Assembly (NCBI GenBank): GCA_900754085.1
Contig: CAAEBO010000057.1
Coordinates: 7,578-71,577 of the forward strand
DNA from: Clostridia bacterium
Lineage (GTDB): Bacteria; Bacillota; Clostridia; TANB77; CAG-508
Reading direction: 5' to 3'
DNA length: 64,000 bases
This document shows positions 2,272 to 24,078 of the stretch, piece after piece. The notes beneath the pieces are model-generated. The model ran no database searches. It saw only the letters and a program-made list of their open reading frames with translations, and was not told where the DNA came from. The position numbers and the translations under genes are program-made. Within the stretch, counting starts at the first letter, position 1; every line of letters begins with the position of its first letter.

Positions 2272-3097
2272 ATGGGAAAGTGTCAGATAATTGCAATAGC
2301 AAATCAAAAAGGTGGAGTTGGAAAAACAACAACTACATTTAGTTTAGGAGTTGCACTTAGTAAACAAGGAAAAAGAGTATTACTAATTGATGCAGATCCA
2401 CAACGGAGATTTAACTACTTGTATGGGTTACTATAATCAAGATGAATTGCAGAATACTATTGGAACATTAATGTCTGATACTATATGTGATAATGAAATA
2501 AATGCAGAAAATGCTATTCTTCATCATAAAGAAGGAGTAGATTTAATTCCTGCAAATTTAGATTTATCAGCAATAGAGTTTTCATTAGTTAATGCAATGA
2601 GCAGAGAGTTCACGCTTAAAAATTCTATAAGAGGTATTAAAGATAACTATGATTATGTATTGATAGATTGTATGCCATCTCTTGGAATGATAACAATAAA
2701 TGCTCTGGCTTGTAGTGATAAGATAATAATTCCAGTACAGGGAGAATATCTGGCTGCAAAAGGAATGGGACATTTATTAAAGACAGTTACGAGAGTGCAG
2801 AAACAAATAAATCCAAATTTGAAAATAGGTGGAGTATTACTTACATTAGTAGATAAAAGAACAAATTTATCAAAAGATGTAAGAGATACTTTAATCGACA
2901 ATTATGGACAATATGTGAAAATATATGGTGCTGAAATACCAAAAGCAATAAATACTGCAAAATCAACATCAACAGGAAAGAGTATATTTGAATTTGATAA
3001 AAATAGTCCTGTTGCAAACGCATACAATAATTTAGCAAAGGAGGTATTAGAGAATGAAAGAACAAGACAAAAAGATGGTACTTCCAAAGTTAGATGA
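2272..3097 (+). pseudogene. parA: ParA/Soj-family partition ATPase interrupted by a 1-nt frameshift near 2404
   Basis: ORF 2254-2436 encodes the Walker A region and DADPQ ([32 protein letters not shown]). The ParA sequence then continues in the next frame ([12 protein letters not shown] ... IIIPVQGEYLAAKG ...). CCA CAA c GGA GAT indicates one extra base at about 2404. Confidence 0.8.
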
Positions 3098-4004
3098 TTT
3101 ATTCACAAGTCAAGAACAAAGAGATAATCCAGTTGTTGATGAGGTAAAGGAAATAGAACTATATAAAATAGGAGAATTTCCAGACCACCCTTTTAGAGTT
3201 ATAGATGATGATAAAATGGAAGAAATGGTTAAAAGTGTAAAAGAACATGGAGTTTTATTACCTGTTATAGTAAGAAAACGAGGAGAAGGAAATTATCAAA
3301 TGATTTCTGGACATAGAAGAAAAAGAGCGTGTGAACTTGCAGGAATAGATAAAATAAAATGTATTGTTAAAGAATTAACTGATGATGAGGCAACAATTCT
3401 TATGGTAGATAGTAATATTCAAAGAGAAGAAATATTGCCTAGTGAAAAAGCATTTGCATATAAAATGAAACTTGAAGCTATGAAACATCAGGGGAAAAGA
3501 GTTGATTTAGAAGAAAACGAAACTTCCGACCCAATGGGTTGGAAGTTAGAAAGTGCTAATAAATTAGGAAAAGAAGTAGGAGAAAGTATGACTAATATAA
3601 GAAGATATATTCGACTTACTTATTTAATACCAGAATTATTAGAACAAGTTGATAACAAAAGAATAGCTTTTAGACCAGCAGTAGAATTATCATATTTAAG
3701 TGAAGAAAATCAATATGTTGTAGAAAATATATTTGAATTTGATGAGGTAACACCTTCTTTAAGTCAAGCAATAAGATTAAAGAAATTAGAACAAGAAGGA
3801 AACCTAACAGAAGAAAAAATAGAAGAAATACTGCAACAGGAAAAGCCAAATCAAAAAGAATATATAAAGATACACAATGAAAAGATAGAAAAATATATTC
3901 CAAGTAGAGTAAAAGAATCTGGAAATGTTGAAGATTTTATTATTCAATGTGTGCAAGATTATATTAGGCGAGAACGAATAAAACAAGAAAGAAATTCCAG
4001 ATAG
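3054..4004 (+). CDS. parB: ParB/Spo0J-like N-terminal-domain protein of mobile elements
   Basis: ISGHRRKRACELAGIDKIKCIVKELTDDEATILMVDSNIQRE contains the GHRR ParB box. GGAGG Shine-Dalgarno. Overlaps the parA 3' end. Confidence 0.85.
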   Translation: MKEQDKKMVLPKLDDLFTSQEQRDNPVVDEVKEIELYKIGEFPDHPFRVIDDDKMEEMVKSVKEHGVLLPVIVRKRGEGNYQMISGHRRKRACELAGIDKIKCIVKELTDDEATILMVDSNIQREEILPSEKAFAYKMKLEAMKHQGKRVDLEENETSDPMGWKLESANKLGKEVGESMTNIRRYIRLTYLIPELLEQVDNKRIAFRPAVELSYLSEENQYVVENIFEFDEVTPSLSQAIRLKKLEQEGNLTEEKIEEILQQEKPNQKEYIKIHNEKIEKYIPSRVKESGNVEDFIIQCVQDYIRRERIKQERNSR

Positions 4005-4987: not shown

Positions 4988-7900
4988 ATGAAAAGTAAAA
5001 CAAAGAAATTTATGGCAATTATATGTTTAGCATTATTGCTATTAACATCTTTGCCAATTAATACTTTTGCAGCATTTATTACTGATATGAATTCAAATGC
5101 ACAATTTGGTGTAATATCAGGAAGTTTAGCAAAAGTAGGACACGAATTACATTATGCTACTTATGATGGTCAAACTTATATAGCTTTTTGTTGTCAAAAG
5201 GGTGTAAAATCTCCTAACGGAAGTGAATATACTTTCAACGGAGATTTTTATGTTCAATATAAACAAAACTTACCACAATACGAGAAAATAGCTGAAATGA
5301 TATATTTTGGTTATACTATGAAATATGGTTTAGGGTTACCATCATCAGATGAAGCATATAGAGCAGCATGTTGTACTCAACAATATGTATGGGAGTATAT
5401 ACATAACAATATAAATAGTTCATTTGATGCATTCCCAAGAGATTCATGGAATGGAAATTTCATGTCATCAGGACACTATGCTAATTGGGTAGCAGAAGCT
5501 GAAGGATATTATAATCAGTATCATGGAAATACATCTTTTAATGGTTCAACACAAAGTGTTGCTATTGGAGATAGAAAAGTGATAACAGATAATAATGGAA
5601 AATTATCAGCATATCAATCATTTTCACAATCAAAAGATGGAGTAACATTTAGCCATACACAAGGAAGTAATGATTTAGTAATAACAATATCTGATAATTG
5701 TAATGTAGAAAATGTAACATTTAATTCAAGAGAATATGGGCTATATCAATTAATGCCAAATGGAAGTGCATATAATAGTTCTACAATGTCAAATTATATG
5801 TATTTTACATTTACTTCAGGTAGTGTTCAAAACTTAATATTTTCTAACTATGTTGATCCATCAGCATTTAGTGTTTCAGTTCATGTTGAAAGTGGAAAAA
5901 TAGAAATTAGAAAAACAAATAATATGGGAAATGCAGTTTCAGATTGTGTTTTTGGTCTATATAGAAATAATGAATGTACTGATTTAGTAAAGAAAGCAAA
6001 TACAAATAATGAAGGTAAAATTTTAATTGAAAAACTAAAACCTGGTACATATTTTGTAAAAGAAGAATCAGTTGCTAGTGGTTATTTATTAGATACAAGT
6101 ATTCAAAGAGTTAATGTAGCAGGTGGTCAAACAGCTAGTGTAACATTTAAAAATAACGAACCTACTGGACAAATAAAGATTTATAAAGTAAGTACAAATA
6201 ATGATAAAATAGCAGGAGCAGAATTTGAAGTAAAGGCAAATGAAGATATATATAATGTTGCGAAAACTAAAAAGTTCTATTCTAAAGGACAAGTAGTTGC
6301 TAAAATAACATCTAATTCAGATGGTGTCGCAACATTAAGTGATATTCCAGTAGGTAAATATATAGTTTATGAAACACAAGCACCTAAAGGATATTTATTA
6401 AATGAAACAATATTTAATGCTAATATTCAATATGTTAATTCTACTACACCAGTTATAGAATTAAAAATTGAAGGAGTAGTTGATACAGAGCCAAAAGGTT
6501 CTATTGAAATAATTAAAAAAGATAGTGAAACAGGAAGCATGGCACAAGGAGATGCTACACTAGAAAATGCAGTTTATAAAGTATTTGCTAATGAAGATAT
6601 ATACAATGTAGCTAAAAGTAAAAAGTATTATTCAAAAGGAGATTTAGTAGCAACAAGAACTATGGATAAATTCGGTAATACAACTCCTGTTGAAGATTTA
6701 CCACTTGGAAAATATATTGTAAAAGAAGATAAAGCTTCAGTTGGTTATTTATTAGATAAAACTGAATACCCAGTAAATTTAGAGTACAAAGACCAACACA
6801 CAAAAGTTATAGCAAATAAGACTACAAGTAATGAAGATGTAAAGAAAATGGGAGTTCACATCTTTAAATCTGGAATAAAAGTAAATTCAGGAGAAACACC
6901 AGGACTTGAAGGTGCAGAATTTACAATAAAATTAAATTCAGCTGTAGAAAGAGCATATTCACAAGGATATACTTATGCTGAAGTATGGAATGGTGTTGAT
7001 GAAAACGGAAATAAAGTTAATGTCGATACTAAAAGAGTAGCAGAGGCTCAAAAAATAGCTCCTACTTATGATGTATTAGTAACTGACAAAGATGGTAATG
7101 CATACACACAAAAGAACTTACCTTATGGTAAATATATCGTTAAGGAAACAGTTACACCAAAAGATTATGAAAGTGCAAGTGATTTCTATTTTTCTATTAC
7201 TCAAGACGAAAGTGAAATAAAAGAAATACCACAAAAAACAAAACATATTGTTGTTAATAATGAACAATTAGAAGCATATATAAAGTTAATCAAAAAAGAT
7301 TTAAAAACTGGAAAAGTTGTTACATTGACAAGTACAACCTTTGAAATAAAAGCTGAAAAAGATATTTACGATAGAGCAACAGGAAAAATAATATGGAAAA
7401 AAGGAGAATCAATTTCACAAAAAATTGGTAGTACAACATATACTTCATTTACAACAAATGCAGATAATATGATAGTACCAGATAAAAGCTTTACTAATAA
7501 CAAAGATGATAAAGGTTCAGTTGTTACTCCTTTACAATTACCAGTTGGAAGTTATGCAATTTATGAAATAAAAACTCCAAAAGGTTTCTTACAATTAGAA
7601 AAACCAGTTACTTTTGAAATAAAAGGAATAAGAGATTATGATAAAGATCAAGATGAAGATTTTATTAAAGAAGTTTTAATGAAAAATGAACAACCTACAG
7701 GCACTTTAATTATAAATAAAACAATAGCATTAAGAGAAGATGCTGACACATCATTGGTTGATACCTCTGATTTATCAGGTATTGAATTCAAACTTACTGC
7801 AAAAGAAGATATTATTGATTATGCAGATGGAAGCAAAATATATACTAAAGGTCAAGAAATAAAGAAATATAATTTGGATAAAAAAGGTAATTTAAAAGTT

Positions 7901-9520
7901 GATAATTTACCTATGGGAACTTATGAATTAGAGGAAACAAAAACTTTAGACGGATTAGTTTTAAATTGGACTAAATATGAAGTAAAATTTGAACAAAAAG
8001 ACTTAACAACAAAGGTATATGAAGATATTAAAGATATATCTAATGATACAACAATGTTTGAATTTTCTAAAAAATCTGTAACAGGAGATGATGAACTTGA
8101 AGGTGCAAAATTATCTGTTATTGATGAAAATAATAAAGTTGTTGATACATGGACATCTACTAAAAAGACTCATAAAATAGAGGGCTTGGTAGTTGGAAAA
8201 ACTTATAAATTAAAAGAAGAAATTGCACCTGATGGATATGTAAGAGCTTCTACAATAGAATTTAAAGTTGAAAGTACAACAAAAGTACAACAAGTTAAAA
8301 TGATAGATAAAATAGTAACAATGACAAAAGCAGATATAGGTGGAAAAGAAATTGAGGGTGCAGAAATTGTTGTTACTGATAAAGACGGAAATGTAATCGA
8401 TAGTTGGACATCTACAAAAGAAAGTCATAACATAAATGGACTAGAAGAAGGTAAAAAATATATTTTACATGAAGAATATGCTCCTGATGGATATGTTGTA
8501 GCAACAGATGTTGAATTTGAAGTTACAAATAAAAAAGATATTCAAAAAGTTGAAATGATAGACAAAATAGTTGAGATGAGAAAAATTGATATTGCAGGAA
8601 AAGAAATTGAAGGTGCAACAATTCAAGTATTAGATAAAGACAACAAAGTAGTTGATGAGTGGGTATCTGGTAAAGAACCACACAAAATCAAAAATTTAGT
8701 TGAGGGAGAAACTTATACATTACATGAAGAAATAGTTGCAGATTCTTATGTAAAAGCAACTGATGTTGTGTTTATTGTAACACCAGATAAAGAAACACAA
8801 AAAGTAGTTATGATTGATAAATTAGTAGAAATAACAAAAACAGATATAACTAATGGAAACGAATTAGAGGGTGCAGAATTAGAAGTAACAGATGAAGATG
8901 GTAATACAATAGATAAATGGACATCAACTAAGGAACCTCATAAAGTAAAAGGTTTAGAGGAAGGTAAAACATATATCTTAAAAGAAACTACTGCTCCTTA
9001 TGGTTATGAAATTACTGAAGAAATAAAATTCACAGTAACAACTGACAAAGAAACTCAAAAAATAGAAATGAAAGATATGCCAATACTAAAAAATGTAAAG
9101 GTAATTAAGATTGATACTGAAACAAAAGAAGTTATTAAAGATAAATTCATATTTGCAATATACGAAGATCCAGAATGTACAAAACTTATTAAAGAGGTTA
9201 AATCTAATTCAGAAGATGGAACAGTTTTATTTGAAGAATTAAGATATGGAACATATTACATTAAAGAAATAAAAGCACCAAAAGATTATGAATTATCAAA
9301 CAAAATTGTTAAAGTTGAAATCAATGACAAAGGTATATTTGTAGATGATACACAAGTAGAAGAAACTGAAAATACAATAGAATTTACATTTGAAAATAAA
9401 AAGATAGAAGTTCCTAAAACAGGAGTTGAAAGCAAAATAAAATTATTTGCTAGTGCAATAATTCTATCTTTACTAGGAATAGCTTATATAATTAAGCGTA
9501 AACAAAATAAAGATAAATAA
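4988..9520 (+). CDS. Cell-wall-anchored (LPXTG-type, VPKTG) surface adhesin with a putative N-terminal thioester domain and many SpaA/Cna-B-like Ig-fold repeats
   Basis: Signal peptide (MKSKTKKFMAIICLALLLLTSLPINTFA). FCCQ (aa 67-70) and TQQYVWEY (aa 130-137) resemble thioester-domain Cys and TQxxxW motifs. Repeated GxY.v.E...P.GY modules. C-terminal VPKTG, hydrophobic helix and KRKQNKDK tail. Confidence 0.8.
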   Translation: MKSKTKKFMAIICLALLLLTSLPINTFAAFITDMNSNAQFGVISGSLAKVGHELHYATYDGQTYIAFCCQKGVKSPNGSEYTFNGDFYVQYKQNLPQYEKIAEMIYFGYTMKYGLGLPSSDEAYRAACCTQQYVWEYIHNNINSSFDAFPRDSWNGNFMSSGHYANWVAEAEGYYNQYHGNTSFNGSTQSVAIGDRKVITDNNGKLSAYQSFSQSKDGVTFSHTQGSNDLVITISDNCNVENVTFNSREYGLYQLMPNGSAYNSSTMSNYMYFTFTSGSVQNLIFSNYVDPSAFSVSVHVESGKIEIRKTNNMGNAVSDCVFGLYRNNECTDLVKKANTNNEGKILIEKLKPGTYFVKEESVASGYLLDTSIQRVNVAGGQTASVTFKNNEPTGQIKIYKVSTNNDKIAGAEFEVKANEDIYNVAKTKKFYSKGQVVAKITSNSDGVATLSDIPVGKYIVYETQAPKGYLLNETIFNANIQYVNSTTPVIELKIEGVVDTEPKGSIEIIKKDSETGSMAQGDATLENAVYKVFANEDIYNVAKSKKYYSKGDLVATRTMDKFGNTTPVEDLPLGKYIVKEDKASVGYLLDKTEYPVNLEYKDQHTKVIANKTTSNEDVKKMGVHIFKSGIKVNSGETPGLEGAEFTIKLNSAVERAYSQGYTYAEVWNGVDENGNKVNVDTKRVAEAQKIAPTYDVLVTDKDGNAYTQKNLPYGKYIVKETVTPKDYESASDFYFSITQDESEIKEIPQKTKHIVVNNEQLEAYIKLIKKDLKTGKVVTLTSTTFEIKAEKDIYDRATGKIIWKKGESISQKIGSTTYTSFTTNADNMIVPDKSFTNNKDDKGSVVTPLQLPVGSYAIYEIKTPKGFLQLEKPVTFEIKGIRDYDKDQDEDFIKEVLMKNEQPTGTLIINKTIALREDADTSLVDTSDLSGIEFKLTAKEDIIDYADGSKIYTKGQEIKKYNLDKKGNLKVDNLPMGTYELEETKTLDGLVLNWTKYEVKFEQKDLTTKVYEDIKDISNDTTMFEFSKKSVTGDDELEGAKLSVIDENNKVVDTWTSTKKTHKIEGLVVGKTYKLKEEIAPDGYVRASTIEFKVESTTKVQQVKMIDKIVTMTKADIGGKEIEGAEIVVTDKDGNVIDSWTSTKESHNINGLEEGKKYILHEEYAPDGYVVATDVEFEVTNKKDIQKVEMIDKIVEMRKIDIAGKEIEGATIQVLDKDNKVVDEWVSGKEPHKIKNLVEGETYTLHEEIVADSYVKATDVVFIVTPDKETQKVVMIDKLVEITKTDITNGNELEGAELEVTDEDGNTIDKWTSTKEPHKVKGLEEGKTYILKETTAPYGYEITEEIKFTVTTDKETQKIEMKDMPILKNVKVIKIDTETKEVIKDKFIFAIYEDPECTKLIKEVKSNSEDGTVLFEELRYGTYYIKEIKAPKDYELSNKIVKVEINDKGIFVDDTQVEETENTIEFTFENKKIEVPKTGVESKIKLFASAIILSLLGIAYIIKRKQNKDK
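8057..9090 (+). repeat. Four tandem ~258-nt (~86-aa) domain repeats inside the adhesin gene
   Basis: Units have the form ...EL/IEGA.L.V.D.....VD.WTSTKE.HK..GL.EGK.Y.L.E..AP.GY......EF.V......Q.V.M.D. Confidence 0.7.
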
Positions 9521-9580: not shown

Positions 9581-9808
9581 ATGCCTAGAAAAAGAAACTT
9601 AAGAATGGAAACATATAACAAGTTAATAAGTATTGGAAAATCAACAGAAAAAGATATTTCAAATTTAAAAATAGAAGATTTAAAAGAAATAACGAAAGAC
9701 CCTGATGTTTTGAATATTATTGCTTTACGAGAGTTTATTAAAGAACATAATACAATAGGGTATTTCAATTATCAAGAAACGAGAAAGGAGGAAACCGATG
9801 GCGAATAA
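9581..9808 (+). CDS. Small hypothetical protein, apparently translationally coupled to the polyvalent protein gene
   Basis: AGGAGG Shine-Dalgarno. 75 codons. The 3' end overlaps the start of the next gene by 11 nt. Confidence 0.55.
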   Translation: MPRKRNLRMETYNKLISIGKSTEKDISNLKIEDLKEITKDPDVLNIIALREFIKEHNTIGYFNYQETRKEETDGE

Positions 9809-12800
9809 ATATCAACTAATAAATGAAATGGCAAGTGAAACATTGAAAGAAATTACTCAAAATGGAGAAAGTTGGATTAAGTTTTTAAATACGGCGAGTA
9901 ACAATTACAAGTATTCTTTTAATGAGCAAGTGTTAATATATGCTCAAAAACCAAATGCTACTGCTTGTGCAGATATAGAAACTTGGAATAAAAAATTACG
10001 AAGATGGGTTAATAAGGGTGCAAAAGGTATTGTCTTATTATCAATGGAAAATGGCAGAAATGTATTAAGACATGTTTTTGATATTTCAGATACACATAGT
10101 GGTATAAATAAAGATTTTAAGTTATGGGAAATAAAACCTTCTTATGAAAATGGAATTATAGAAACATTAGAAAATAGTTTTGGAAATTTAGAAGTTAAAT
10201 CTAATTTAGCAGAAGCAATATATTCAGCATCTATAAATTTAGTTGAAGATAATTATCAAGATTATTTAGTTGATTTAAAAGAAGTTTTAGATGGTAGCTT
10301 ATTAGAGGGAATGCAAGATATAGATTTAGAGGGAAACTTTATTGTATTACTTGCAAAATCAATATCATATATGGCAATGAAAAGATGTGGCATTGATCCA
10401 ACAGAACATTTTAATGTATCGGATTTTGAAATGATTAGTAGTTTTAATAATAAAAGAGTTGTTTCAAGATTAGGTGCAGCAATAAGTGATATTGCAGAAC
10501 AAGAATTAAGAGAAATCTATTCTAGTGTTATAAATTATGAAAAAAATTATAAATTAACAAATCGTACATTTGTTAATAATGAAAAAATAAATTATCATAA
10601 TAATGAAGAAAAAAATAATGAAGGGAGAAATGATTATGATAGAATTAACATACAATCAAATGGGAGATTACCAAATACCACAAGTAGCATTACCAAAAAC
10701 GAAGAAAATGGCACAGGGGAGATTCTCAAGAATGAGGGAGAAATTCCTAAAAGAACACAAAAGAGGGTTATACGAGGAATTAATGTTAGATGGCAAGATG
10801 GAAGAACATTTAGGAGAAATAGAGCAAACAGCCCAAAAGAGAATGAAACAGATAATAACAAGTCTAGCAGAGAAGAATCAAATAACAGAGGAAATGAAAA
10901 GAGAGAATCAAATGAGTTGGGTACAAGCAATGAACTCAATAAAGAACCAAGCCGAAGAAATGATAATGTCAGAGCTAATTTACAATTAAATCTTTTTGAA
11001 GATACCTATGTACCACCAATTAAAGAGTTACCAAGTGTAGATACACAAATAAATAATATTCAAGCACAAGAAGAAGTAGAAAATACTTCTGCTTTTGAAT
11101 TTACACAAAAGGTAATAGATGATGTTCTTTTAGAGGGTAGTCATTTTGCTGATGGAAAATTTAGAATTTATAGATTATTCCAAGAAAGTTATTCTACTGA
11201 AGATAACATTACTTTTCTTAAAAAAGAATATGGCGAGGGTGGTGGAGGTGTAAGAAATTACGAAAATTTAGACGAATGGCATAATGCAAAAGGGATTAGA
11301 CTAACATTCGGACTAAAAGAAAATGCACCAGAAACTTTGATAACATGGAGTAAGGTTGAAAAAAGAATAAAAGAATTAGTAAATGCTGATATTTATCTTA
11401 ATAGTAATGAAAAAGAAGAATATCAAAAATGGCTTAATGAGGAATATGAAAATCAAAAATGGATGTATGATGCAAGAATAAATACAGATCAAAAACAAGT
11501 AGCTATTGATGAAGAAAATCAAGATATTCAAAATATAGAAAAGAATTATAAATTATCTAATGGCAATTATTTTCACTTCCATACTAATGATGAGGGGTAT
11601 TATTATGCGATTTATAATAACTTTGGAACAGAAATAGATGGTGGATTGCTAGAATATTCCGAAATAGATAATACAAAACAATCTGAACTAGATATAAGAA
11701 AAAGACTTGCTGAATTTACAGACATAGAAGAATTAGCAAATGAAAATCTAAGAGAAGTAAGTCAAGAATTTATTGATGCTTTAGAATCTGGAGCTATTGC
11801 AGAAGAGGTTGGAAATGCTGTTTTAGAAAAAGTAGAAAATGACACAATAAATGCAATAGACGAGTTAAAAGCAATTGGACAAGCACAAAAAGTAATCAAT
11901 TTATTTAAAGCCAGAGAAGAAAATGGAAAGCCACTTAATAGAGATGAATATTATAAAAATCAAGAAAAAATAAACTATCATATTGATAACAATTCTTTAG
12001 GAGAGGGAACGCCAAAAGAAAAAGTTAGAAGAAATATAGATGCCATAAAACTACTTAAAAAGCTAGAAGATGAAAACAGATTAGCCAATAAAGAAGAACA
12101 AGAAATTTTAGCTAGTTATGTGGGTTGGGGTGGACTTCCAGATGTGTTTGATGAAAGTAAAGATAATTGGAGCGAAGAATATAACGAATTAAAAGAAATT
12201 CTTACAGATGAAGAATATAAGTCTGCAAGAGCTTCTACTTTAACTGCTTTTTATACACCACCAGTAGTTATAAATGCAATATATGACACTCTAAAAAGCA
12301 TGGGTGTTGAACAAGCAAATATTCTTGAACCAAGTTGTGGTACAGGAAATTTTTTAGGAATGTTGCCACAAGAAATGCAAAGTTCAAAACTATATGGAGT
12401 AGAACTAGATTCTATAAGTGGTAAGATAGCAAAACAATTATATCAAAAAGCAAATATTAAAGTTCAAGGTTATGAAAAAGCAAATTTACCAGACTCGTTT
12501 TTTGATATAGCAATAGGAAATGTGCCATTTGGAGATTTCAAAGTTAATGATAAAAGATATGATAAAAATAATTTTCTAATACACGATTATTTCTTTGCTA
12601 AAACTTTAGATAAAGTTAGACCAGGAGGAGTAATTGCATTTATTACTTCAAAAGGAACAATGGATAAAGCAAGTCCAGAGGTTAGAAAGTATTTAGCACA
12701 AAGAGCAGACCTTTTAGGTGCTATTAGATTACCAGATAATACTTTTACAAAGAATGCAGGAACAAAAGTAACATCAGATATTATCTTCTTACAAAAAAGA

Positions 12801-15800
12801 GAAAATTTGACCGATATAATGCCAGATTGGGTATATCTTGATAGAGATGAAAACAATATTACAATGAATAAATATTTTGTAGATAATCCAGATATGATAT
12901 TAGGAAAAATGGAAATGGTATCTACTGCTTATGGCTATGATTCAACTTGTAAAGCAGAAGAAGACACAAATTTAGAAGAACAATTAAATTATGCGATAAC
13001 TAATATACATGGAGAATTACAGAATAATAGTATTGAAAATGAAATTGAACAAGAAGACACATCAATACCTGCAATTCCAACTGTTAAGAATTATTCTTAT
13101 GCAATAGTAGATGATAAATTGTATTTTAGAGAAAATTCAAAAATGATATTACAAGATGAGTTACCTTTAACGGCACAAAATAGAATAAAAGGTTTAATTT
13201 TGTTAAGAGAACAGGTAAGAGAATTAATTGATTTTCAAATGGAAGATTATTCAGATGAGGAAATTCATATTGCACAAGCAAAATTAAATGAATTATATGA
13301 TAGATTTACAAAAGAATATGGCTTAATAAATTCAAGAGCAAATGAAACAGCATTTTCTAATGATAGTAGTTATTTCTTATTATGCTCACTTGAAAAGATA
13401 GATGGAGAGGGTAATTTTGTAGGAAAAGCTGATATATTTAGCAAAAGAACTATAAAAGCTAAAAAGAAAGTATTACAAGTAGATACTCCAGATGAGGCTT
13501 TGATTTTATCTATACAAGATAAGGCAAAAGTTGATTTAGATTATATGCAACAATTATGCAAGATAGACAAAGAAGAAATAATAAATAGTTTAGAGGGTGT
13601 TATATTTAAAGTACCTGATTATGAAAATACAAACAATTGGGTAACTGCTGATGAATATTTATCTGGTAATGTTAGAGAAAAACTAAAAGTTGCAGAACAA
13701 TTTGCAAAAGAAGATTCTAGTTTTAATATAAATGTTGAAAAATTAAAAGAGGTTATTCCAAAAGACCTTACTGCAAGTGAAATTGGAATTAAGTTAGGCT
13801 CAACATGGATACCTCCAGAAATCATTAGAAAGTTTATTTTTGAATTATTAGATACACCAAGTTATAACAGATGGGATATTCATGTTAAATATTCTAATAT
13901 AACTGCTGAATGGTATATTGATGGAAAAAGTAATGATAGAAACAATGTAAAAGCATATACAACTTATGGTACATCAAGAATAAATGCATATAAAATAATA
14001 GAACAGACACTTAATCTAAAAGATGTAAAAATATTTGATACATTTATAGATGATGAGGGCAGAAAACAAAGAGTATTAAACAGAAAAGAAACTGCAATAG
14101 CTTGTAGTAAACAAGACGCAATAAAAGAAGCATTCTTAAATTGGGTATGGGAAGATCCAGAAAGAAGAAATCATTTAGTAAGACTTTATAATGATAAATT
14201 TAATTGCATAAGACCAAGAGAATATGATGGCTCTCATATAGGTTTTGTAGGAATGAATCCAGAGATAAAATTAAGGACACATCAACTTAATGCAGTAGCA
14301 CATGTTTTATATGGTAATAACACATTATTAGCACATGAAGTAGGTGCAGGAAAGACTTTTGAGATGGTTGCAGCTGCAATGGAAAGTAAGCGTTTAGGCT
14401 TATGTAATAAGTCTTTATTTGTAGTTCCAAATCATATTATAGAGCAGTTTGCAAGTGAGTTTTTGCAACTTTATCCAAGTGCCAATATTTTAGTTGCTAC
14501 TAAAAAAGACTTTGAAACCAAAAATAGAAAGAAATTTTGTAGTAGGATAGCAACAGGAGAATTTGATGCAGTAATTATTGGACATTCACAATTTGAAAGA
14601 ATACCAATGTCAATAGAAAGACAAATTGCATCATTAGAAGAACAAATAAGTGATATTACAAAAGGAATTGCCTCTGAAAAATCAAACAGAGGAGAAAACT
14701 ATACTATTAAACAAATGGAGAAAACAAGAAAATCATTAGAAACTAGATTAGAGAAATTACATAAGGAAGAAAGAAAAGATGGTGTTGTAACATTTGAAGA
14801 ATTAGGTGTAGATAAATTATTTGTTGATGAAGCTCATAATTATAAGAATTTGTTTTTATATACGAAAATGCGTAATGTAGGTGGAATAGCACAAACTGAA
14901 GCACAAAAATCTTCCGACCTTTTTATGAAATGTAGATATTTAGATGAAATTACAGGAGGCAAAGGTTCTGTATTTGCTACTGGAACACCAGTAAGTAACT
15001 CAATGGCAGAACTTTATACAATGCAGAGATATTTACAATATTCTGGACTAAAAGAAAATAGTTTAGAACATTTTGATAATTGGGCAAGTACATTTGGAGA
15101 AACAGTTACTGCAATAGAACTTGCACCAGAGGGTACAGGATATAGAGCAAAAACAAGATTTGCAAAATTTCACAATTTACCAGAGCTAATGTCTATGTTT
15201 AAAGAAGTAGCAGATATTCAAACTGCTGAAACATTAAATTTACCAACACCAGAATTTGAAAATATAAATGTAGTAGTAAAACCTAGTGAAATACAACAAG
15301 AAATGGTAAAGGCTTTAGGAGAAAGAGCAGAGAAAATAAGGTCAGGAACAGTTGATGCAACAGAAGATAATATGCTTAAAATTACAAATGAGGGTAGAAA
15401 ACTAGCATTAGACCAAAGACTTATGAATCCTTTATTACCAGATTCAGAAAGTAGTAAAGTAAATTCATGTGCAGAAAATGTTTATAGAATATGGAATGAA
15501 AATAGTGATAAGAAATCAACACAACTTGTATTCTGTGATTTATCAACTCCAAAAGACTTGAAAGGATATGAAAAAGAAGAATTTACAGATGTATATAATG
15601 AATTAAAGAAAAAGCTAATTCAAAAAGGCATTCCACCTGATGAAATAGCTTTTATTCATGAGGCAGATAATGAGGTTAAAAAGAAAGAATTATTTAGTAA
15701 AGTAAGAAAAGGACAAGTTAGAGTGTTAATGGGTTCAACTCAAAAAATGGGTGCAGGTACTAATGTTCAAGATAAGTTAATTGCAACTCATCATTTAGAT

Positions 15801-16760
15801 TGTGCATGGAAACCTTCTGATTTGACTCAACGAAATGGAAGAATGATTAGACAGGGGAATGAAAACAAAAAAGTATATGTATATTCTTATGTTACTGAAA
15901 AGACATTTGATAGTTATATGTATCAATTAGTAGAGCAAAAGCAAAAATTCATTTCTCAAATAATGACATCAAAAACACCTGCAAGAACAATGGAAGATAT
16001 TGATGACAAAGCATTAACTTATGGAGAAATAAAAGCATTAGCAACAGGAAATCCTAAAATATTAGAAAAGACTTCATTAGATACTGATGTAGCAAAATTA
16101 AGATTATTAAAACAAGAATTTATGAATCAAAAATATTCATTGCAAGATAAAATTATAAAGTATTTTCCAGAAGAAATAGCAAGACTTAATAATAAAATTG
16201 GAGCAATGGAAGAAGATACTATTAAATTACAAGAATACACTAGACCAAATGCAGATGGTTTTTCTCCTATGAAAATAAATGGAATAACTTATACTGAAAA
16301 ACAAGAGGCAGGAAAGAGATTATTACAAAGTATAAACGATTTAAAAAGTATGGAAACACGAGAAATAGGAGAATATAGAGGATTTACAATGGAAATTAGT
16401 TTTGATTCAATAACTAGAAATATTAGATTAAAACTAAAAAATAAATTTAGTTATTCTATTGATTTAGGAACTGATGTAAATGGAAATATAACAAGAATAA
16501 ATAATTGTTTAGAGAATATTGCAAAAGATATTCCTCACGAAAGAGATTTATTAGATAATACATATTTTCAATTAGAAAATGCAAAACAAGAATCTCAAAA
16601 AGAATTTCCGAAAGAACAAGAGTTACAAGAAAAGTTACGAAAACTAGAAGAAATAAATGCAGAATTAAAAATAAATGAAAATGAACACGAAATGCTAGGG
16701 GATGAAAAAGAAGAAAAACAAGATAAATTTCCTGATAAAAATTCTCCAGAAAGATGTTAA
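9798..16760 (+). CDS. Polyvalent conjugative-element-type protein: ArdC-like N-terminal domain, low-complexity linker, N6-adenine DNA methyltransferase and SNF2/DEAD-like helicase
   Basis: 2320-codon ORF with a GGAGG Shine-Dalgarno. MTase motif I ILEPSCGTGNFLG (about 12321) and motif IV GNVPFG (about 12516). Helicase motif I HEVGAGKTFEM (about 14335), motif II VDEAHNYKN (14826-14837), motif VI TQRNGRMIRQGN. Confidence 0.85.
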   Translation: MANKYQLINEMASETLKEITQNGESWIKFLNTASNNYKYSFNEQVLIYAQKPNATACADIETWNKKLRRWVNKGAKGIVLLSMENGRNVLRHVFDISDTHSGINKDFKLWEIKPSYENGIIETLENSFGNLEVKSNLAEAIYSASINLVEDNYQDYLVDLKEVLDGSLLEGMQDIDLEGNFIVLLAKSISYMAMKRCGIDPTEHFNVSDFEMISSFNNKRVVSRLGAAISDIAEQELREIYSSVINYEKNYKLTNRTFVNNEKINYHNNEEKNNEGRNDYDRINIQSNGRLPNTTSSITKNEENGTGEILKNEGEIPKRTQKRVIRGINVRWQDGRTFRRNRANSPKENETDNNKSSREESNNRGNEKRESNELGTSNELNKEPSRRNDNVRANLQLNLFEDTYVPPIKELPSVDTQINNIQAQEEVENTSAFEFTQKVIDDVLLEGSHFADGKFRIYRLFQESYSTEDNITFLKKEYGEGGGGVRNYENLDEWHNAKGIRLTFGLKENAPETLITWSKVEKRIKELVNADIYLNSNEKEEYQKWLNEEYENQKWMYDARINTDQKQVAIDEENQDIQNIEKNYKLSNGNYFHFHTNDEGYYYAIYNNFGTEIDGGLLEYSEIDNTKQSELDIRKRLAEFTDIEELANENLREVSQEFIDALESGAIAEEVGNAVLEKVENDTINAIDELKAIGQAQKVINLFKAREENGKPLNRDEYYKNQEKINYHIDNNSLGEGTPKEKVRRNIDAIKLLKKLEDENRLANKEEQEILASYVGWGGLPDVFDESKDNWSEEYNELKEILTDEEYKSARASTLTAFYTPPVVINAIYDTLKSMGVEQANILEPSCGTGNFLGMLPQEMQSSKLYGVELDSISGKIAKQLYQKANIKVQGYEKANLPDSFFDIAIGNVPFGDFKVNDKRYDKNNFLIHDYFFAKTLDKVRPGGVIAFITSKGTMDKASPEVRKYLAQRADLLGAIRLPDNTFTKNAGTKVTSDIIFLQKRENLTDIMPDWVYLDRDENNITMNKYFVDNPDMILGKMEMVSTAYGYDSTCKAEEDTNLEEQLNYAITNIHGELQNNSIENEIEQEDTSIPAIPTVKNYSYAIVDDKLYFRENSKMILQDELPLTAQNRIKGLILLREQVRELIDFQMEDYSDEEIHIAQAKLNELYDRFTKEYGLINSRANETAFSNDSSYFLLCSLEKIDGEGNFVGKADIFSKRTIKAKKKVLQVDTPDEALILSIQDKAKVDLDYMQQLCKIDKEEIINSLEGVIFKVPDYENTNNWVTADEYLSGNVREKLKVAEQFAKEDSSFNINVEKLKEVIPKDLTASEIGIKLGSTWIPPEIIRKFIFELLDTPSYNRWDIHVKYSNITAEWYIDGKSNDRNNVKAYTTYGTSRINAYKIIEQTLNLKDVKIFDTFIDDEGRKQRVLNRKETAIACSKQDAIKEAFLNWVWEDPERRNHLVRLYNDKFNCIRPREYDGSHIGFVGMNPEIKLRTHQLNAVAHVLYGNNTLLAHEVGAGKTFEMVAAAMESKRLGLCNKSLFVVPNHIIEQFASEFLQLYPSANILVATKKDFETKNRKKFCSRIATGEFDAVIIGHSQFERIPMSIERQIASLEEQISDITKGIASEKSNRGENYTIKQMEKTRKSLETRLEKLHKEERKDGVVTFEELGVDKLFVDEAHNYKNLFLYTKMRNVGGIAQTEAQKSSDLFMKCRYLDEITGGKGSVFATGTPVSNSMAELYTMQRYLQYSGLKENSLEHFDNWASTFGETVTAIELAPEGTGYRAKTRFAKFHNLPELMSMFKEVADIQTAETLNLPTPEFENINVVVKPSEIQQEMVKALGERAEKIRSGTVDATEDNMLKITNEGRKLALDQRLMNPLLPDSESSKVNSCAENVYRIWNENSDKKSTQLVFCDLSTPKDLKGYEKEEFTDVYNELKKKLIQKGIPPDEIAFIHEADNEVKKKELFSKVRKGQVRVLMGSTQKMGAGTNVQDKLIATHHLDCAWKPSDLTQRNGRMIRQGNENKKVYVYSYVTEKTFDSYMYQLVEQKQKFISQIMTSKTPARTMEDIDDKALTYGEIKALATGNPKILEKTSLDTDVAKLRLLKQEFMNQKYSLQDKIIKYFPEEIARLNNKIGAMEEDTIKLQEYTRPNADGFSPMKINGITYTEKQEAGKRLLQSINDLKSMETREIGEYRGFTMEISFDSITRNIRLKLKNKFSYSIDLGTDVNGNITRINNCLENIAKDIPHERDLLDNTYFQLENAKQESQKEFPKEQELQEKLRKLEEINAELKINENEHEMLGDEKEEKQDKFPDKNSPERC
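10636..10989 (+). CDS. tnpV: TnpV-like protein (117 aa) encoded in an alternative frame inside the polyvalent protein gene
   Basis: AAGGGAG (10621-10627) lies 8 nt before ATG 10636. The product MIELTYNQMGDYQIPQVALP...KFLKEHKRGLYEELMLDGKMEEHLGEIEQTAQ...ITEEMKRENQMSWVQAMNSIKNQAEEMIMSELIYN fits my memory of the TnpV family pattern. The longest ORF in this frame starts at 10603. Confidence 0.6.
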   Translation: MIELTYNQMGDYQIPQVALPKTKKMAQGRFSRMREKFLKEHKRGLYEELMLDGKMEEHLGEIEQTAQKRMKQIITSLAEKNQITEEMKRENQMSWVQAMNSIKNQAEEMIMSELIYN

Positions 16761-16819: not shown

Positions 16820-17734
16820 ATGGGAATAGAACATTCGCAAAATTATTTACATAGTAAACAACTTGTAGCGACTTTGTTATCAAAGAGTAATATTTGTAAC
16901 GACGATATTATAATTGAGATAGGTCCTGGAAAAGGAATTATTACCATTGAACTTGCAAAAAAAAGCAAGCAAGTTATAGCAATAGAGTTTGATGCGAAAT
17001 TAGCGAAAACTTTATCTGAAAAGTATAAAGAATCTAAAAAAGTTCAAATAATAGAGATGGATTTTTTAAAATATAAAATATCAGTAAAAGAACCATATAA
17101 AGTATGTGCAAATATTCCATTTAACATAACTGCTGATATTGTGAAAAAGGTATTTGAAGCCGATAATCCTCCTGAAGATATATATTTCATAATGCAGTAT
17201 GAGGCTTTTCTCAGGTATTCTGGACAGCCCTTTTATAACGAAAGTTTGAGGTCTCTTTTATACAAACCTTGGTTTTCCGCTGAATTGATTTATGAGTTTA
17301 AACCATCAGATTTTTATCCTGTGCCAAATGCACGAATATGTTTTGCTCACTTTCAAAGAAAAACATCTGCTGATGTTGAGGATGCGATAGACTATAGAAA
17401 TTTTCTGTCATATATATTTTTAGCATCTGGAAATACTTTCAAAGATAAAACAAAAAAATTGTTTACTTATGAGCAACAAAAACGCATTTGCAAGTTTTTA
17501 AAAATTAAATTAGAGTCAACGCTTACTGAAATCTCATACGATGGATGGCTGTACCTATATGATGTTTTTCTTAAATTTGTTTCCAACGAAAAAAAAGCTA
17601 TTATATTAAATGCTGAACAAGACATGAAAAACAATCAAAACAAGATTCAAAAAAAACATCGAAATCGTAATCATGGTTATTGGAAATTTGAAGCTAAGCG
17701 CCAAAAAAAATTAAAATTTGAAAATGGAAAATAA
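16820..17734 (+). CDS. Erm/KsgA-family rRNA adenine N6-methyltransferase (candidate MLSB resistance determinant, divergent, with a basic C-terminal tail)
   Basis: HSQNYL start, SAM motif EIGPGKGIIT, catalytic-type NIPFNIT. Located next to ant(6) on a mobile element. I could not assign a specific erm class. Confidence 0.7.
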   Translation: MGIEHSQNYLHSKQLVATLLSKSNICNDDIIIEIGPGKGIITIELAKKSKQVIAIEFDAKLAKTLSEKYKESKKVQIIEMDFLKYKISVKEPYKVCANIPFNITADIVKKVFEADNPPEDIYFIMQYEAFLRYSGQPFYNESLRSLLYKPWFSAELIYEFKPSDFYPVPNARICFAHFQRKTSADVEDAIDYRNFLSYIFLASGNTFKDKTKKLFTYEQQKRICKFLKIKLESTLTEISYDGWLYLYDVFLKFVSNEKKAIILNAEQDMKNNQNKIQKKHRNRNHGYWKFEAKRQKKLKFENGK

Positions 17735-18126
17735 GAATTTTATCAGTAGCTATATTTCAAATTTCTATATTATTAGCAATAGTGTAAACAAAAAAGTTGA
17801 CAGAAAAAAGTAATAAGTAAATCATAAATTACAATTTGTTAAGTAGTTGATGATATGGATAAGTATTTAGAAATCAAAAAGATTTTTGTACTGTTTAGAT
17901 GTGATTATGATAGAGAAAGGATGCTAATACAATTTGGTCTGTAAGCTATGATATTAAAAATAATAGCATTTATAGGATTGATGGAAATCCAAAAAGGAAA
18001 AAATATAAAATAGATACAAGGTTAAATTTAAAGAATAATTTTATGTTTAAGGTAAATCTAAGGCAATAGAAAATTTACTTTTTTCTGTTATAATATAAGT
18101 AATAATAATTTTAAAAGTGAGTTGAT

Positions 18127-18984
18127 ATGAAAATGAGAACAGAGAAACAAATATATGATACTATACTTAATTTTGCTAAAGCAGATGATAGAATTAGGGT
18201 GGTTACTTTAGAAGGTTCAAGAACAAATATTAATATTATACCAGATGATTTTCAAGATTATGATATTACTTTTTTTGTCACAGACATGCAGAGTTTTATT
18301 AATAGTGATGAGTGGCTTAATGTTTTTGGAGAGAGACTTATTATGCAAAAACCCGAGGATATGGAATTGTTTCCAAAAGAAGAAAAAGGGTATTCATATC
18401 TTATGTTATTTTGGGACGGAGTTAAAATAGATTTGACATTATTGCCATTAGAAGTTTTAGATGAATATTTTACTTGGGATAAATTAGTAAAATTATTATT
18501 AGATAAGGATAATCGTGTTACTAATATACCAGTACCTACAGATGAAGATTATTATATAGAACATCCGACAGCACGTTCTTTTGATGATTGCTGTAATGAA
18601 TTTTGGAATACTGTAACATATGTAGTGAAAGGATTATGTCGAAAGGAAATTTTATTTGCAATCGACCATTTAAATAATATTGTGCGTATGGAATTACTGC
18701 GAATGATTTCATGGAAGGTTGGAATAGAGCAAGGTTATAGTTTTAGTCTAGGAAAAAACTATAAATTTTTAGAACGATATATTTCACCTGAATTATGGAA
18801 GAAAATTCTTGCTACATATAATATGGGGTCATATACAGAAATGTGGAAATCTTTAGAATTATGTATGGGAATTTTTAGAATGGTATCAAAAGAAGTGGCA
18901 CAATGTTTAAATTATTTATATCCAGATTATGATAAAAATATTAGTAATTATGTTATAAGACAAAAAGAAAAATATCAAAGATAA
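18127..18984 (+). CDS. ant(6): Aminoglycoside 6-nucleotidyltransferase ANT(6) (streptomycin resistance)
   Basis: MKMRTEKQIYDTILNFAKADDRIRVVTLEGSRTN...DYDITFFV...YSYLMLFWDGVKIDLTLLP matches the ANT(6)/AadE-AadK family as I remember it. 285 aa is the typical length. Confidence 0.85.
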   Translation: MKMRTEKQIYDTILNFAKADDRIRVVTLEGSRTNINIIPDDFQDYDITFFVTDMQSFINSDEWLNVFGERLIMQKPEDMELFPKEEKGYSYLMLFWDGVKIDLTLLPLEVLDEYFTWDKLVKLLLDKDNRVTNIPVPTDEDYYIEHPTARSFDDCCNEFWNTVTYVVKGLCRKEILFAIDHLNNIVRMELLRMISWKVGIEQGYSFSLGKNYKFLERYISPELWKKILATYNMGSYTEMWKSLELCMGIFRMVSKEVAQCLNYLYPDYDKNISNYVIRQKEKYQR

Positions 18985-22401: not shown

Positions 22402-24078
22402 ATGAAAAGAGGTAGAAAAAGTAAATATGATATTGAAATAAATAAATCAAAAGTATGGAATGTTGCCGTATATATTAGATTATCAGTTCAAGATGGAGAT
22501 AAGGCAGAAAGTAATAGTGTAATTAATCAGAAAGAACTTTTAAATATGTATTTGGAACAAGATAAAGAACTTAATGTAAAAGAATATTATATTGATGACG
22601 GATTTTCTGGAACAACTTTTGATAGACCTGCTTTCAAGAAAATGATGAAAGATATAGAAAAAGAAATAGTAAATACAGTTATAGTAAAAGATTTATCTCG
22701 TTTTGGAAGAAACTATATTGAAGTTGGAAATAAGATAAATTCATTTATGAAAGATAATATAAGATTTATATCTGTTTGTGAAAAGATAGATAGTTATAAA
22801 GATAAAAAGTCAGTAGATGATATTATTTTTCCTTTAAAAAATATAATGAATGAAATGTATTGCAAAGATGTATCAGATAAATTGATAAAGACATTTGAGG
22901 TTATGAAAAAAGAGGGAAAATATATAGGGGGAATACCACCTTTTGGCTATATAAGAGATGAAAATAATAAACACAAACTAATAGTAGATGAGGCTTCAGC
23001 AAGTGTTGTAAGAAGAATATTTGATTTATGCGAATCTGGAATTGGTAATGTGTTAATTACTAAAGAATTAAATGAAAAAAATGTATTAACACCAAGCGAA
23101 TATAACTGTAAGATTTTAAAAATCACATCATCAAGTAGTAAAGTTGCAAAACAATGGACAGCAAGTATTGTCGGAAAGATATTAGATAATAGAGTTTATT
23201 GTGGGGATTTAGTTCAAAACAAGACAAGAGGAATTAGCTATAAAGTACATAAGAGATTAAAAAACGATGAAGAAGATTACATTATAATTGAAAATGCACA
23301 TGAACCAATTATAGAAAAAGAAAGATTTTTTAATATACAAAAAATAAGAAAAGATAGAAAGTTTAATTGGAACAGAAGAATAGAAAATATTTCTATATTT
23401 GACGGAATTGTATTTTGCAGTAATTGTAATAAGCCATTAGTAGCAACTATAAAAGAAAAAAGTATGATAAATGATACTGAAATTGATAAATATGTATTGG
23501 AATGTAAAGAATGCAATAATCAAAATGATAAACCTTATGTAATAGATGTGGACAAGTTAAAAATATGTATTTTTAGAAGTATTAAATATCATATAGATTT
23601 ACTAAATGGATTTGAAAATGCAAGATTATCTGTTAAAGAAAATAAAGAATATGCAGACAAAATAAAAGAGAATGTTGAGAATTTAAAAAATAAATTAGAA
23701 AGACTTGATAAAGAAAGAACAAAATATTTCACAAAATTCAGAGATATGGAAATTGACGAGCAAGAATATATTGCTTTTATCAGAGAGAATGTTAAAGAGG
23801 AAGAAAATATAAAGGAACAAATTAAAAAAGAAAAAGCAAAGTTAATGGAGGCAAGATTAAGTTATAAGAATGTTGCTGAAAATAACTGGGTAGATACTTT
23901 AATGAAATATAAAAATCAAAGGAAGATTACAAAAGAAATGTTAAATGACTTAATAGAAAAAATTTATATCAATAATGATGGTAGAAAAATTAAATTAGTA
24001 TTTAAGTATGAAGACGCTTTTAAATTGGCAATGGATTATTTGAAAATTGTAAAGGAAGGGGGAAATACTAATGCCTAG
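22402..24078 (+). CDS. Large serine recombinase (resolvase domain, recombinase domain, Zn ribbon, coiled coil)
   Basis: AVYIRLSVQDGDKAESNSVINQKELL (catalytic Ser region), VIVKDLSRFGRNYIEVG, CSNCNKPL...ECKECNN. Confidence 0.9.
   Translation: MKRGRKSKYDIEINKSKVWNVAVYIRLSVQDGDKAESNSVINQKELLNMYLEQDKELNVKEYYIDDGFSGTTFDRPAFKKMMKDIEKEIVNTVIVKDLSRFGRNYIEVGNKINSFMKDNIRFISVCEKIDSYKDKKSVDDIIFPLKNIMNEMYCKDVSDKLIKTFEVMKKEGKYIGGIPPFGYIRDENNKHKLIVDEASASVVRRIFDLCESGIGNVLITKELNEKNVLTPSEYNCKILKITSSSSKVAKQWTASIVGKILDNRVYCGDLVQNKTRGISYKVHKRLKNDEEDYIIIENAHEPIIEKERFFNIQKIRKDRKFNWNRRIENISIFDGIVFCSNCNKPLVATIKEKSMINDTEIDKYVLECKECNNQNDKPYVIDVDKLKICIFRSIKYHIDLLNGFENARLSVKENKEYADKIKENVENLKNKLERLDKERTKYFTKFRDMEIDEQEYIAFIRENVKEEENIKEQIKKEKAKLMEARLSYKNVAENNWVDTLMKYKNQRKITKEMLNDLIEKIYINNDGRKIKLVFKYEDAFKLAMDYLKIVKEGGNTNA

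Follow-up and report, generated by a model that had tools for sequence, protein, structure and literature searches.

A 64,000-nucleotide stretch of contig CAAEBO010000057.1 from a Clostridia bacterium (hereafter the window) contains a 2320-codon open reading frame (ORF) for a polyvalent-type protein (9798–16760, plus strand) and, wholly nested within it on the same strand and in the +1 frame, a complete gene of the TnpV family (tnpV, 10636–10989, plus strand, 117 codons plus stop). With a probability that we put at roughly 85%, comparison of related loci indicates that both frames are functional coding sequence and that the two genes form a genuine, ancient same-strand nested pair on an integrated mobile element of Firmicutes. 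Both ORFs are intact and have been kept by selection in many lineages.

The two ORFs were recovered as the original prediction had described them. In frame 0, the 2320-aa host ORF was supported by the ORF list with its translation and by Pfam domains, and the +1-frame ORF (10603–10989) encodes 128 aa from its first ATG and 117 aa from the ATG at 10636; the overlap is 354 nt long, with the tnpV stop codon at 10987–10989. The Shine-Dalgarno (SD) sequence claimed for tnpV, AAGGGAG, is present at 10621–10627, within host codons and 8 nt before the ATG, and a run of seven A residues (A7, 10609–10615) lies just 5′ of this ribosome-binding site. The similarity to TnpV proposed in the original prediction was confirmed by a match of the 117-aa product to Pfam TnpV (PF14198) over the whole profile (positions 1–111 of 111; 130.4 bits against a cut-off of 27; E = 3.6e-38). 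In the host frame, the overlap is preceded by a conserved N-terminal domain (N-domain; residues 1–261, 9798–10580, plus strand, defined by our profile A1) and falls in an inter-domain linker (residues 258–412, 10569–11033, plus strand). The exact 2320-aa host protein was found on 19 contigs in public collections and the exact 117-aa TnpV product on 53 contigs.

The same nested layout was found in a wide range of genomes. Profile A1 was searched against one genome per GTDB species, and the best 80 of at least 578 relatives were taken; these belong to Clostridia, Bacilli, 'Tenericutes', and Peptococcaceae, have N-domains with 45–100% identity and tnpV GC contents of 29–62%, and include isolates (Pelotomaculum terephthalicicum JT, Acetivibrio mesophilus N2K1, Desulfosporosinus, Anaerofustis, Pseudoflavonifractor sp. 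MSJ-30, Desulfotomaculum, and Lutispora thermophila) as well as two metagenome-assembled genomes built with hifiasm and one complete Dehalobacter genome. All 80 species-level genomes presented TnpV homology in the +1 frame relative to the N-domain, full-length except for three loci at contig ends, with the tnpV ATG 50–77 nt past the end of the N-domain. The host frame was free of stops inside tnpV in 79 of the 80 (the exception is locus L061) and usually extended over 1700–3057 codons or off the contig end; an N-domain in frame with TnpV was seen in none of these 80 species-representative genomes. Four loci with the nested configuration of the window (L001–4) encode TnpVs 91% identical and have host ORFs of 2128–2236 codons, and a 2320-codon ORF is also present in Clostridium sp. 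CAG:780 (L034, scaffold HF994452.1), with a 100% identical N-domain. The layout was also identified in RefSeq records of Monoglobus pectinilyticus and Cohnella herbarum (Monoglobus and Cohnella plasmids), in a GC-rich homologue (L104), and in three IMG/VR contigs (L111, L112, and L118) with N-domains too divergent for profile A1.

Openness of the host frame across tnpV was evaluated after dereplication of the loci to 50 lineages (<90% TnpV identity; tnpV GC 0.29–0.62), by redrawing synonymous tnpV codons with each locus's own codon usage. One host-frame stop was observed inside tnpV across the 50 lineages, as compared to approximately 443 expected under this synonymous resampling (about 10 per AT-rich lineage); in the third frame, 914 stops were observed and 716 expected. 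For the tnpV of the window, resampled with local codon usage, about 10.5 host-frame stops were expected and none of 500 resamples was stop-free, so that the pattern of T residues flagged in the original prediction is indeed not a chance event; its hand count of 10 tnpV codons ending in T, none of them before AA, AG, or GA, was reproduced, with 37% of codons starting in one of these ways. Over all lineages, T occupied the tnpV wobble position in 1 of 1907 cases before AA/AG/GA codons versus 524 of 3890 (13.5%) before other codons, and third-position T made up 8% in the window tnpV versus 37–43% in the remainder of the host gene. Free-standing tnpV genes spanned by no long ORF, found for example by a serine recombinase gene on Campylobacter plasmids, upstream of tet(O/W/32/O), beside RepA_N, and on IMG/VR contigs, presented between 1 and 17 stops in the equivalent frame and never zero (23 genes). 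The host frame is, by all of these counts, under strong selection against stop codons, exerted through avoidance of T at those tnpV wobble positions that precede AA/AG/GA codons. Neither chance nor composition explains the open frame, both being ruled out by the resampling, the third frame, the context of wobble T, and the free-standing genes. An antisense ORF over tnpV (10634–10939, minus strand, 101 codons) had also been pointed out in the window, where it is indeed open and results from the purine-rich sense strand; its openness is not conserved, the corresponding antisense frames being open in only 10 and 16 of the 50 lineages, and it was rejected as a third coding frame.

Sequence constraint followed a different distribution in the two frames, as seen in the deepest divergence bin (N-domain identity <50%), to which the following values refer. 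Amino acid identity was 0.43 for TnpV versus 0.46 for the N-domain. Nucleotide identity at host codon positions 1, 2, and 3 was 0.57, 0.68, and 0.35 in the N-domain and 0.45, 0.55, and 0.32 in the downstream region, as compared to 0.42, 0.54, and 0.67 in the overlap; host codon position 3, which is TnpV position 2, is thus the most conserved position in the overlap (0.67) and the least conserved in the flanks (0.32–0.35), showing that the periodicity of conservation flips to the TnpV phase there. Synonymous codon identity in the host frame was 2.0 times the expectation in the overlap versus 1.04–1.07 times in the flanks; this is the excess synonymous constraint that the original prediction had proposed as a check. 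Constraint is present in both frames and differs in kind, being amino acid conservation for TnpV and stop avoidance for the host. When simulations conserved the host peptide only, TnpV identity fell to 0.16 and approximately 3.3 stops appeared in the TnpV frame, versus an observed identity of 0.44; when only TnpV was conserved, the simulated identity of the host linker was 0.21–0.23 and the observed value was 0.24. At synonymous sites, TnpV exceeded the N-domain in conservation only slightly (observed/expected 1.08–1.58 versus 1.07–1.50). Judged from these patterns, purifying selection acts on the TnpV sequence with about the strength seen for the N-domain, and the host frame is kept open with little selection on its actual residues. 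The frame-0 linker described in the original prediction calls for a qualification: its sequence is not conserved, and the motifs that distant homologues seem to share (GRL.. and ..NLQL..) are by-products of TnpV, shadows of its GDY and ELIY motifs.

The signals for translation of tnpV were conserved as well. Of 85 loci, 84 have ATG as the first codon of the nested ORF, which encodes 113–119 aa throughout the 85 and ends with a TnpV-frame stop 3–12 nt beyond the end of the profile match. An SD core was found within 20 nt upstream of the tnpV start in 74 of 77 genome loci, typically GAAAGGAG, GAAGGGAG, or AAAGGAGG, ending a few nt before the ATG. In several lineages, a TnpV-frame stop stands directly before the ATG (...TAGATG), which means that TnpV has no upstream extension in those lineages. 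One locus (L056, 1318–1684) presents ATT as the start of the nested gene, with an intact AGGAGG ahead of it. No known RNA element was found near tnpV by matching against Rfam.

Predicted structures are consistent with a folded product in one frame and a flexible one in the other. The AlphaFold2 model of TnpV (predicted local distance difference test, pLDDT, 82.6) shows an N-terminal β-hairpin followed by four or five helices. For host residues 1–480, the model presents the N-domain at a pLDDT of approximately 90 and residues 258–412 at approximately 30 without secondary structure; the overlap (residues 280–397) is thereby predicted to lie wholly inside a disordered linker.

Downstream of the linker, the host gene encodes an LPD16 domain (residues 581–662, 11538–11783, plus strand; Pfam PF18830, E = 2.2e-8), a methyltransferase-like segment (residues 842–909, 12321–12524, plus strand; sub-threshold match to Methyltransf_25, 20.9 bits against a cut-off of 27), and a SNF2/ResIII helicase core with Helicase_C (residues ~1490–2020, 14265–15857, plus strand; Pfam SNF2-rel_dom E = 2.9e-11, ResIII, and Helicase_C), in which the core covers residues ~1490–1684 and Helicase_C residues 1933–2020. 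The host protein combines the N-domain, LPD16, SNF2/ResIII, and Helicase_C in 2320 aa encoded on a mobile element, as polyvalent proteins do; as to a methylase-helicase dyad, the helicase is clear and the methyltransferase match is below the Pfam cut-off, and homologues, named N-6 DNA methylase by NCBI, have N6_Mtase matches. The N-domain (residues 1–261) matched no Pfam family above threshold. Its match to ArdcN (PF08401) was sub-threshold in the window (E = 0.031; 14.9 bits against a cut-off of 22.6) and in the 6 of 12 homologues that matched (best E 6e-5), and neither a sequence match in the Protein Data Bank (PDB) nor a Foldseek match to ArdC was found; on these grounds the N-domain was not assigned to ArdC-N, of which it is possibly a distant relative. 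The proposal that a gene had been overprinted on a polyvalent anti-restriction gene is thus upheld as to the overprinting, by constraint in both frames, and receives only sub-threshold Pfam support as to an ArdC-like N-domain. No outcome that the original prediction had named as refuting it was obtained.

Variants of the locus fall into further configurations. In one, A6 replaces the A7 of L001–4 within the same element, so that the N-domain reads in frame into TnpV (396 aa), with the methylase-helicase part split off (L012–15; 24 contigs); the A7-to-A6 change occurred in two lineages, L012–15 and P0122/P0123, the latter in the window's own lineage, and this recurrence could reflect a mutational hotspot or a phase-variable switch. 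In another (L008), the N-domain (264 aa), tnpV, and a 1879-aa gene follow one another; the free-standing tnpV between two genes that had been anticipated in relatives thus does occur. Its only interruption of the host frame is a single TAG shortly before tnpV; beyond it, this frame continues open across tnpV and into the following domain. A host-frame stop is present in Lutispora thermophila DSM 19022. Frameshifts within tnpV itself were found in L016 and L103. The variants that depart from the pattern resemble products of ordinary decay or split versions of the locus. Two loci, L005 (7843–8538) and L105 (3811–4351), encode TnpVs 89–100% identical to that of the window and lack the N-domain; homology to the window starts approximately 90 nt upstream of tnpV (at ..FVNNEKINYHNN), and in L005 it is preceded by unrelated sequence, a leucine-rich repeat gene, and housekeeping genes. 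These two either arose by deletion or recombination or are chimeras of assembly. In L104, a group II intron-type reverse transcriptase gene (14444–16327) interrupts the helicase part of the homologous polyvalent gene. The Anaerofustis locus (L066) has two more, free-standing tnpV genes (16828–17184 and 18087–18446) a few kb downstream of the nested copy; in both of them, stops interrupt the frame that the nested copy keeps open, and one follows a 712-codon ORF.

A protein search with the N-domain returned no match longer than 487 aa, even though the collection holds the 2320-aa window protein and many relatives of 2000–3000 aa; the resulting list over-represents truncated and frameshifted products and is unfit for estimating frequencies. 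N-domain-to-TnpV proteins of 39x aa in this list were considered as a common in-frame fusion, a candidate that was rejected given frame switches at scattered positions and the bias of the list to short proteins. A conserved programmed frameshift at the A-run was likewise rejected; the run is not conserved, and therefore cannot account for the family-wide pattern, and stops precede the ATG in several lineages.

Several other explanations of the nested layout were weighed against dual coding. The 2320-codon ORF might be an artefactual fusion of what are truly three genes (N-domain, tnpV, and methylase-helicase), produced by sequencing or assembly error or by a purine-rich frame that is open by chance; this would agree with the three-gene layout of L008, the stop just past tnpV in L104, the purine-rich composition of the region, and NCBI annotation, which often presents TnpV plus a truncated methylase or helicase. 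We consider it very improbable, because 79 of 80 species genomes, among them isolates, high-fidelity (HiFi) assemblies, and a complete genome, have an open host frame, contrary to the alternative raised in the original prediction that frame 0 is normally interrupted here. The 80 independent genomes with their isolates and HiFi assemblies rule out sequencing error. In addition, approximately 10 host-frame stops would be expected per lineage and none is seen, as opposed to about 20 in the third frame; avoidance of T is context-specific (1 of 1907 versus 13.5%); free-standing tnpV genes of similar composition have 1–17 stops in the equivalent frame; L008 departs from the nested layout by one stop only; and truncated NCBI annotations begin at internal codons of ORFs that are actually open. 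That the host frame alone is coding, with the TnpV-like reading a relic or a by-product of the linker, would be in line with a position inside another gene, normally forbidden by annotation rules, and with TnpV translation being predicted here from sequence. This is an extremely remote prospect, given that TnpV identity is 0.44 rather than the 0.16 expected of a by-product and that simulated TnpV frames gain 3.3 stops; moreover, conservation follows the TnpV phase, the SD, ATG, and stop occupy fixed conserved positions, TnpV has a full-length Pfam match and a confidently predicted fold, and free-standing homologues exist at 44–58% identity, for example beside a serine recombinase.

A third alternative holds that TnpV is made mainly as an N-domain::TnpV fusion, through a programmed +1 frameshift, transcriptional slippage, or phase variation at A7 (10609–10615), as opposed to independent initiation. 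An A7 run is a slippage-prone motif, an internal SD can stimulate +1 shifting, as in prfB, and the A6 alleles that encode a 396-aa fusion are found in two lineages and 24 contigs; the A-run is, however, absent from L006/7, L008, and most lineages, so that there is no conserved slippery motif of the dnaX, IS3, or prfB type, the TnpV-frame stop right before the ATG excludes an upstream shift in several lineages, the spacing of SD and ATG is typical of ordinary initiation, and the in-frame state was absent from the 80 species-representative genomes. Other database proteins that switch frame do so at scattered points, like random frameshift mutants, in a list skewed to short proteins, and we regard this alternative as improbable. 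Finally, tnpV could be the remnant of a small mobile cassette recently inserted in a SNF2-type gene, as integrative and mobilizable elements (IMEs) of Streptococcus suis insert in snf2 genes of integrative and conjugative elements (ICEs); IMEs and cis-mobilizable elements (CIMEs) bearing tnpV have been described in snf2 genes (PMC9815147), and free-standing and nested TnpVs interleave in a rough neighbor-joining tree. Insertion of this kind is highly unlikely here, where position, frame, and spacing are identical across hosts with N-domains only 45% identical, TnpV divergence tracks that of the N-domain (0.43 versus 0.46; 0.83 versus 0.87), and the segment is exactly one ORF long, without further cassette genes.

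Some observations weigh against the reading of the locus as a functional nested pair. We infer translation of both frames from selection signatures and signals. The host-frame peptide is almost without sequence constraint, and selection may preserve perhaps only translational continuity into the downstream domains. A scan for an internal promoter near tnpV gave nothing above chance, and neither a PDB sequence search nor Foldseek searches of PDB and BFVD returned a significant structural relative of TnpV. The lineages are related, and summed probabilities overstate their independence; against this objection, wobble positions are near saturation between deep lineages. The host fusion is also broken in variants that keep tnpV, namely L008 (TAG before tnpV), L104 (host-frame stop 30 nt after tnpV), L061 (host-frame stop inside the overlap), and the A6 alleles L012–15, showing that the fused state is not obligatory; they may represent pseudogenes or split forms that remain viable.

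If both frames are functional, a single mRNA would give rise to two products. Ribosomes starting at 9798 would read through the overlap and produce the full-length polyvalent protein, and ribosomes binding at the internal SD would start at 10636 and produce TnpV, which would be co-transcribed with the polyvalent protein and made in an amount set by internal initiation. As to its history, tnpV may have been located between two genes in the same frame and become their linker once the host frame opened through it. A rule of thumb, taken from the part of the overlapping-gene literature covered here, is that the disordered frame is the younger one, and on that basis the structured frame seems older and the disordered frame derived; the interleaving of free-standing and nested TnpVs, in a rough neighbor-joining tree without support values, does not fix the direction of the transition. 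A bolder proposal is that much of the TnpV family has its principal and ancestral home in the nested state and that the overlap is a functional device, not a frozen accident, with the free-standing tnpV of Tn4451-type transposons and tet(O)/aph cassettes as repeated escapees that have decayed in the host frame, and with A7 slippage as a heritable switch. We consider this doubtful; if it is true, the embedded tnpV would make TnpV synthesis depend on a polyvalent establishment protein being transcribed and translated, with host-frame ribosomes modulating internal initiation, and A7 slippage would toggle between full-length polyvalent protein plus TnpV and an N-domain::TnpV fusion plus a headless methylase-helicase.

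Nested out-of-frame genes as such are already known. The comS gene comprises ~46 codons and is known only from the B. subtilis group. Like tnpV here, comS in srfAB of Bacillus subtilis is a small same-strand, out-of-frame gene within a very large multidomain gene and is provided with its own start; it is co-transcribed with its host gene, as tnpV would be (PMC12915044). It differs in that the nested tnpV has 117 codons, represents a widespread Pfam family, and is conserved across Firmicutes classes at GC contents of 29–62%, in that the host frame is a disordered linker here and an enzymatic module in srfAB, and in that comS is experimentally proven whereas dual coding at tnpV is predicted from sequence. 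Rz1 inside Rz of phage lambda and genes of the phiX174 type are also complete genes in the +1 frame of another gene, both being functional. These belong to compact phage genomes and their products act in one process; the carrier of tnpV, in contrast, is a chromosomally integrated element of cellular genomes. Overprinting is the standard evolutionary explanation for such genes (PMC8227390). Embedded genes of Escherichia coli and Pseudomonas (pop/ompA and P. aeruginosa overlapping genes) resemble tnpV as long ORFs in annotated genes that pipelines exclude (PMC7103648, PMC8850804); they are reportedly antisense, young, mostly orphan, and weakly conserved, with support from ribosome profiling (Ribo-seq), whereas tnpV, a member of a known family, lies on the same strand and draws its support from deep conservation.

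Free-standing TnpVs of the Tn4451/Tn4453 type share with the nested form the PF14198 family, 44–58% identity, and an association with large serine recombinases, two of which are encoded in the window; unlike the nested form, they are encoded by a separate gene directly after the recombinase gene (as in L098), which has 1–17 stops in the frame that stays open in the nested form. TnpV has been postulated to act like Xis alongside serine recombinases of the TnpX type (PMC3158075). The host protein resembles the polyvalent proteins of Iyer et al. 2017 (PMC5512222) as a giant multidomain mobile-element protein with LPD16, which those authors list as specific to polyvalent proteins of conjugative elements, and a putative methylase-helicase dyad. 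That paper mentions neither TnpV nor an overlap or frameshift, and a gene hidden in an inter-domain linker is absent from the concept it describes. In agreement with the original prediction, the specific overlap of tnpV with a polyvalent gene appears undescribed: no account was found in the TnpV and polyvalent-protein literature covered, mostly that outside subscription journals.

Because pipelines forbid nested genes, either tnpV is dropped or the giant protein is truncated by 500–1000 residues. In Pelotomaculum terephthalicicum JT, GenBank lists TnpV (MCG9968398.1) and a methylase cut to 1694 aa (MCG9968397.1), and RefSeq the full 2561-aa protein (WP_446676305.1). For Monoglobus pectinilyticus, RefSeq gives TnpV and a SNF2 protein cut to 1522 aa within an open ORF of 2559 codons; Acetivibrio mesophilus has the full-length protein in GenBank/RefSeq, and the protein collection lacks its exact TnpV product. 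Similar inconsistencies, with TnpV plus a truncated or omitted giant protein or a full-length giant protein without TnpV, were seen in L101 (8160–15839) and L102 (8115–14375). Truncation and dropping differ between GenBank and RefSeq records of one genome and distort surveys of domain architecture in mobile-element proteins.

The polyvalent gene is part of an integrated element covering ~2.2–25.8 kb of the window, flanked by housekeeping genes (QueH; DAPDH and PolA). The element encodes ParA (2387–3097), ParB (3054–4004), a SpaA-repeat surface protein of 1510 aa (4988–9520), and a 75-aa ORF (9581–9808) ahead of the polyvalent gene, and an Erm-like rRNA adenine dimethylase (16820–17734), a streptomycin adenylyltransferase (18127–18984), and two adjacent large serine recombinases (22402–24078 and 24071–25753) after it; the interval at 19.0–22.4 kb contains small ORFs only. 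As delimited by ParA and the second recombinase (2387–25753), the carrier resembles a compact integrated element of ~23 kb, and no relaxase or type IV secretion genes were found among the ORFs scanned. The tnpV gene is ~11.4 kb from the serine recombinases and not, as in Tn4451, directly downstream of a TnpX-type recombinase gene; adjacency to a recombinase is a habit of the TnpV family and not a requirement.

Long conserved same-strand overlaps are considered very rare in bacteria, where reported cases are mostly young antisense ORFs with weak evolutionary support. With both frames of a 354-nt overlap kept in dozens of species-level lineages whose GC contents span a two-fold range, the pair described here is an unusually clear bacterial case of dual coding and a natural system in which the bases that encode a folded protein also encode, in another frame, a disordered linker tolerant of sequence change. 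Polyvalent proteins may more generally grow in the way that this pair suggests, through read-through of an out-of-frame intervening gene that fuses its neighbours without loss of that gene. Resistance-carrying elements of gut Firmicutes commonly have TnpV as a marker, and the obligate pairing of TnpV with a methylase-helicase protein provides a new functional lead.

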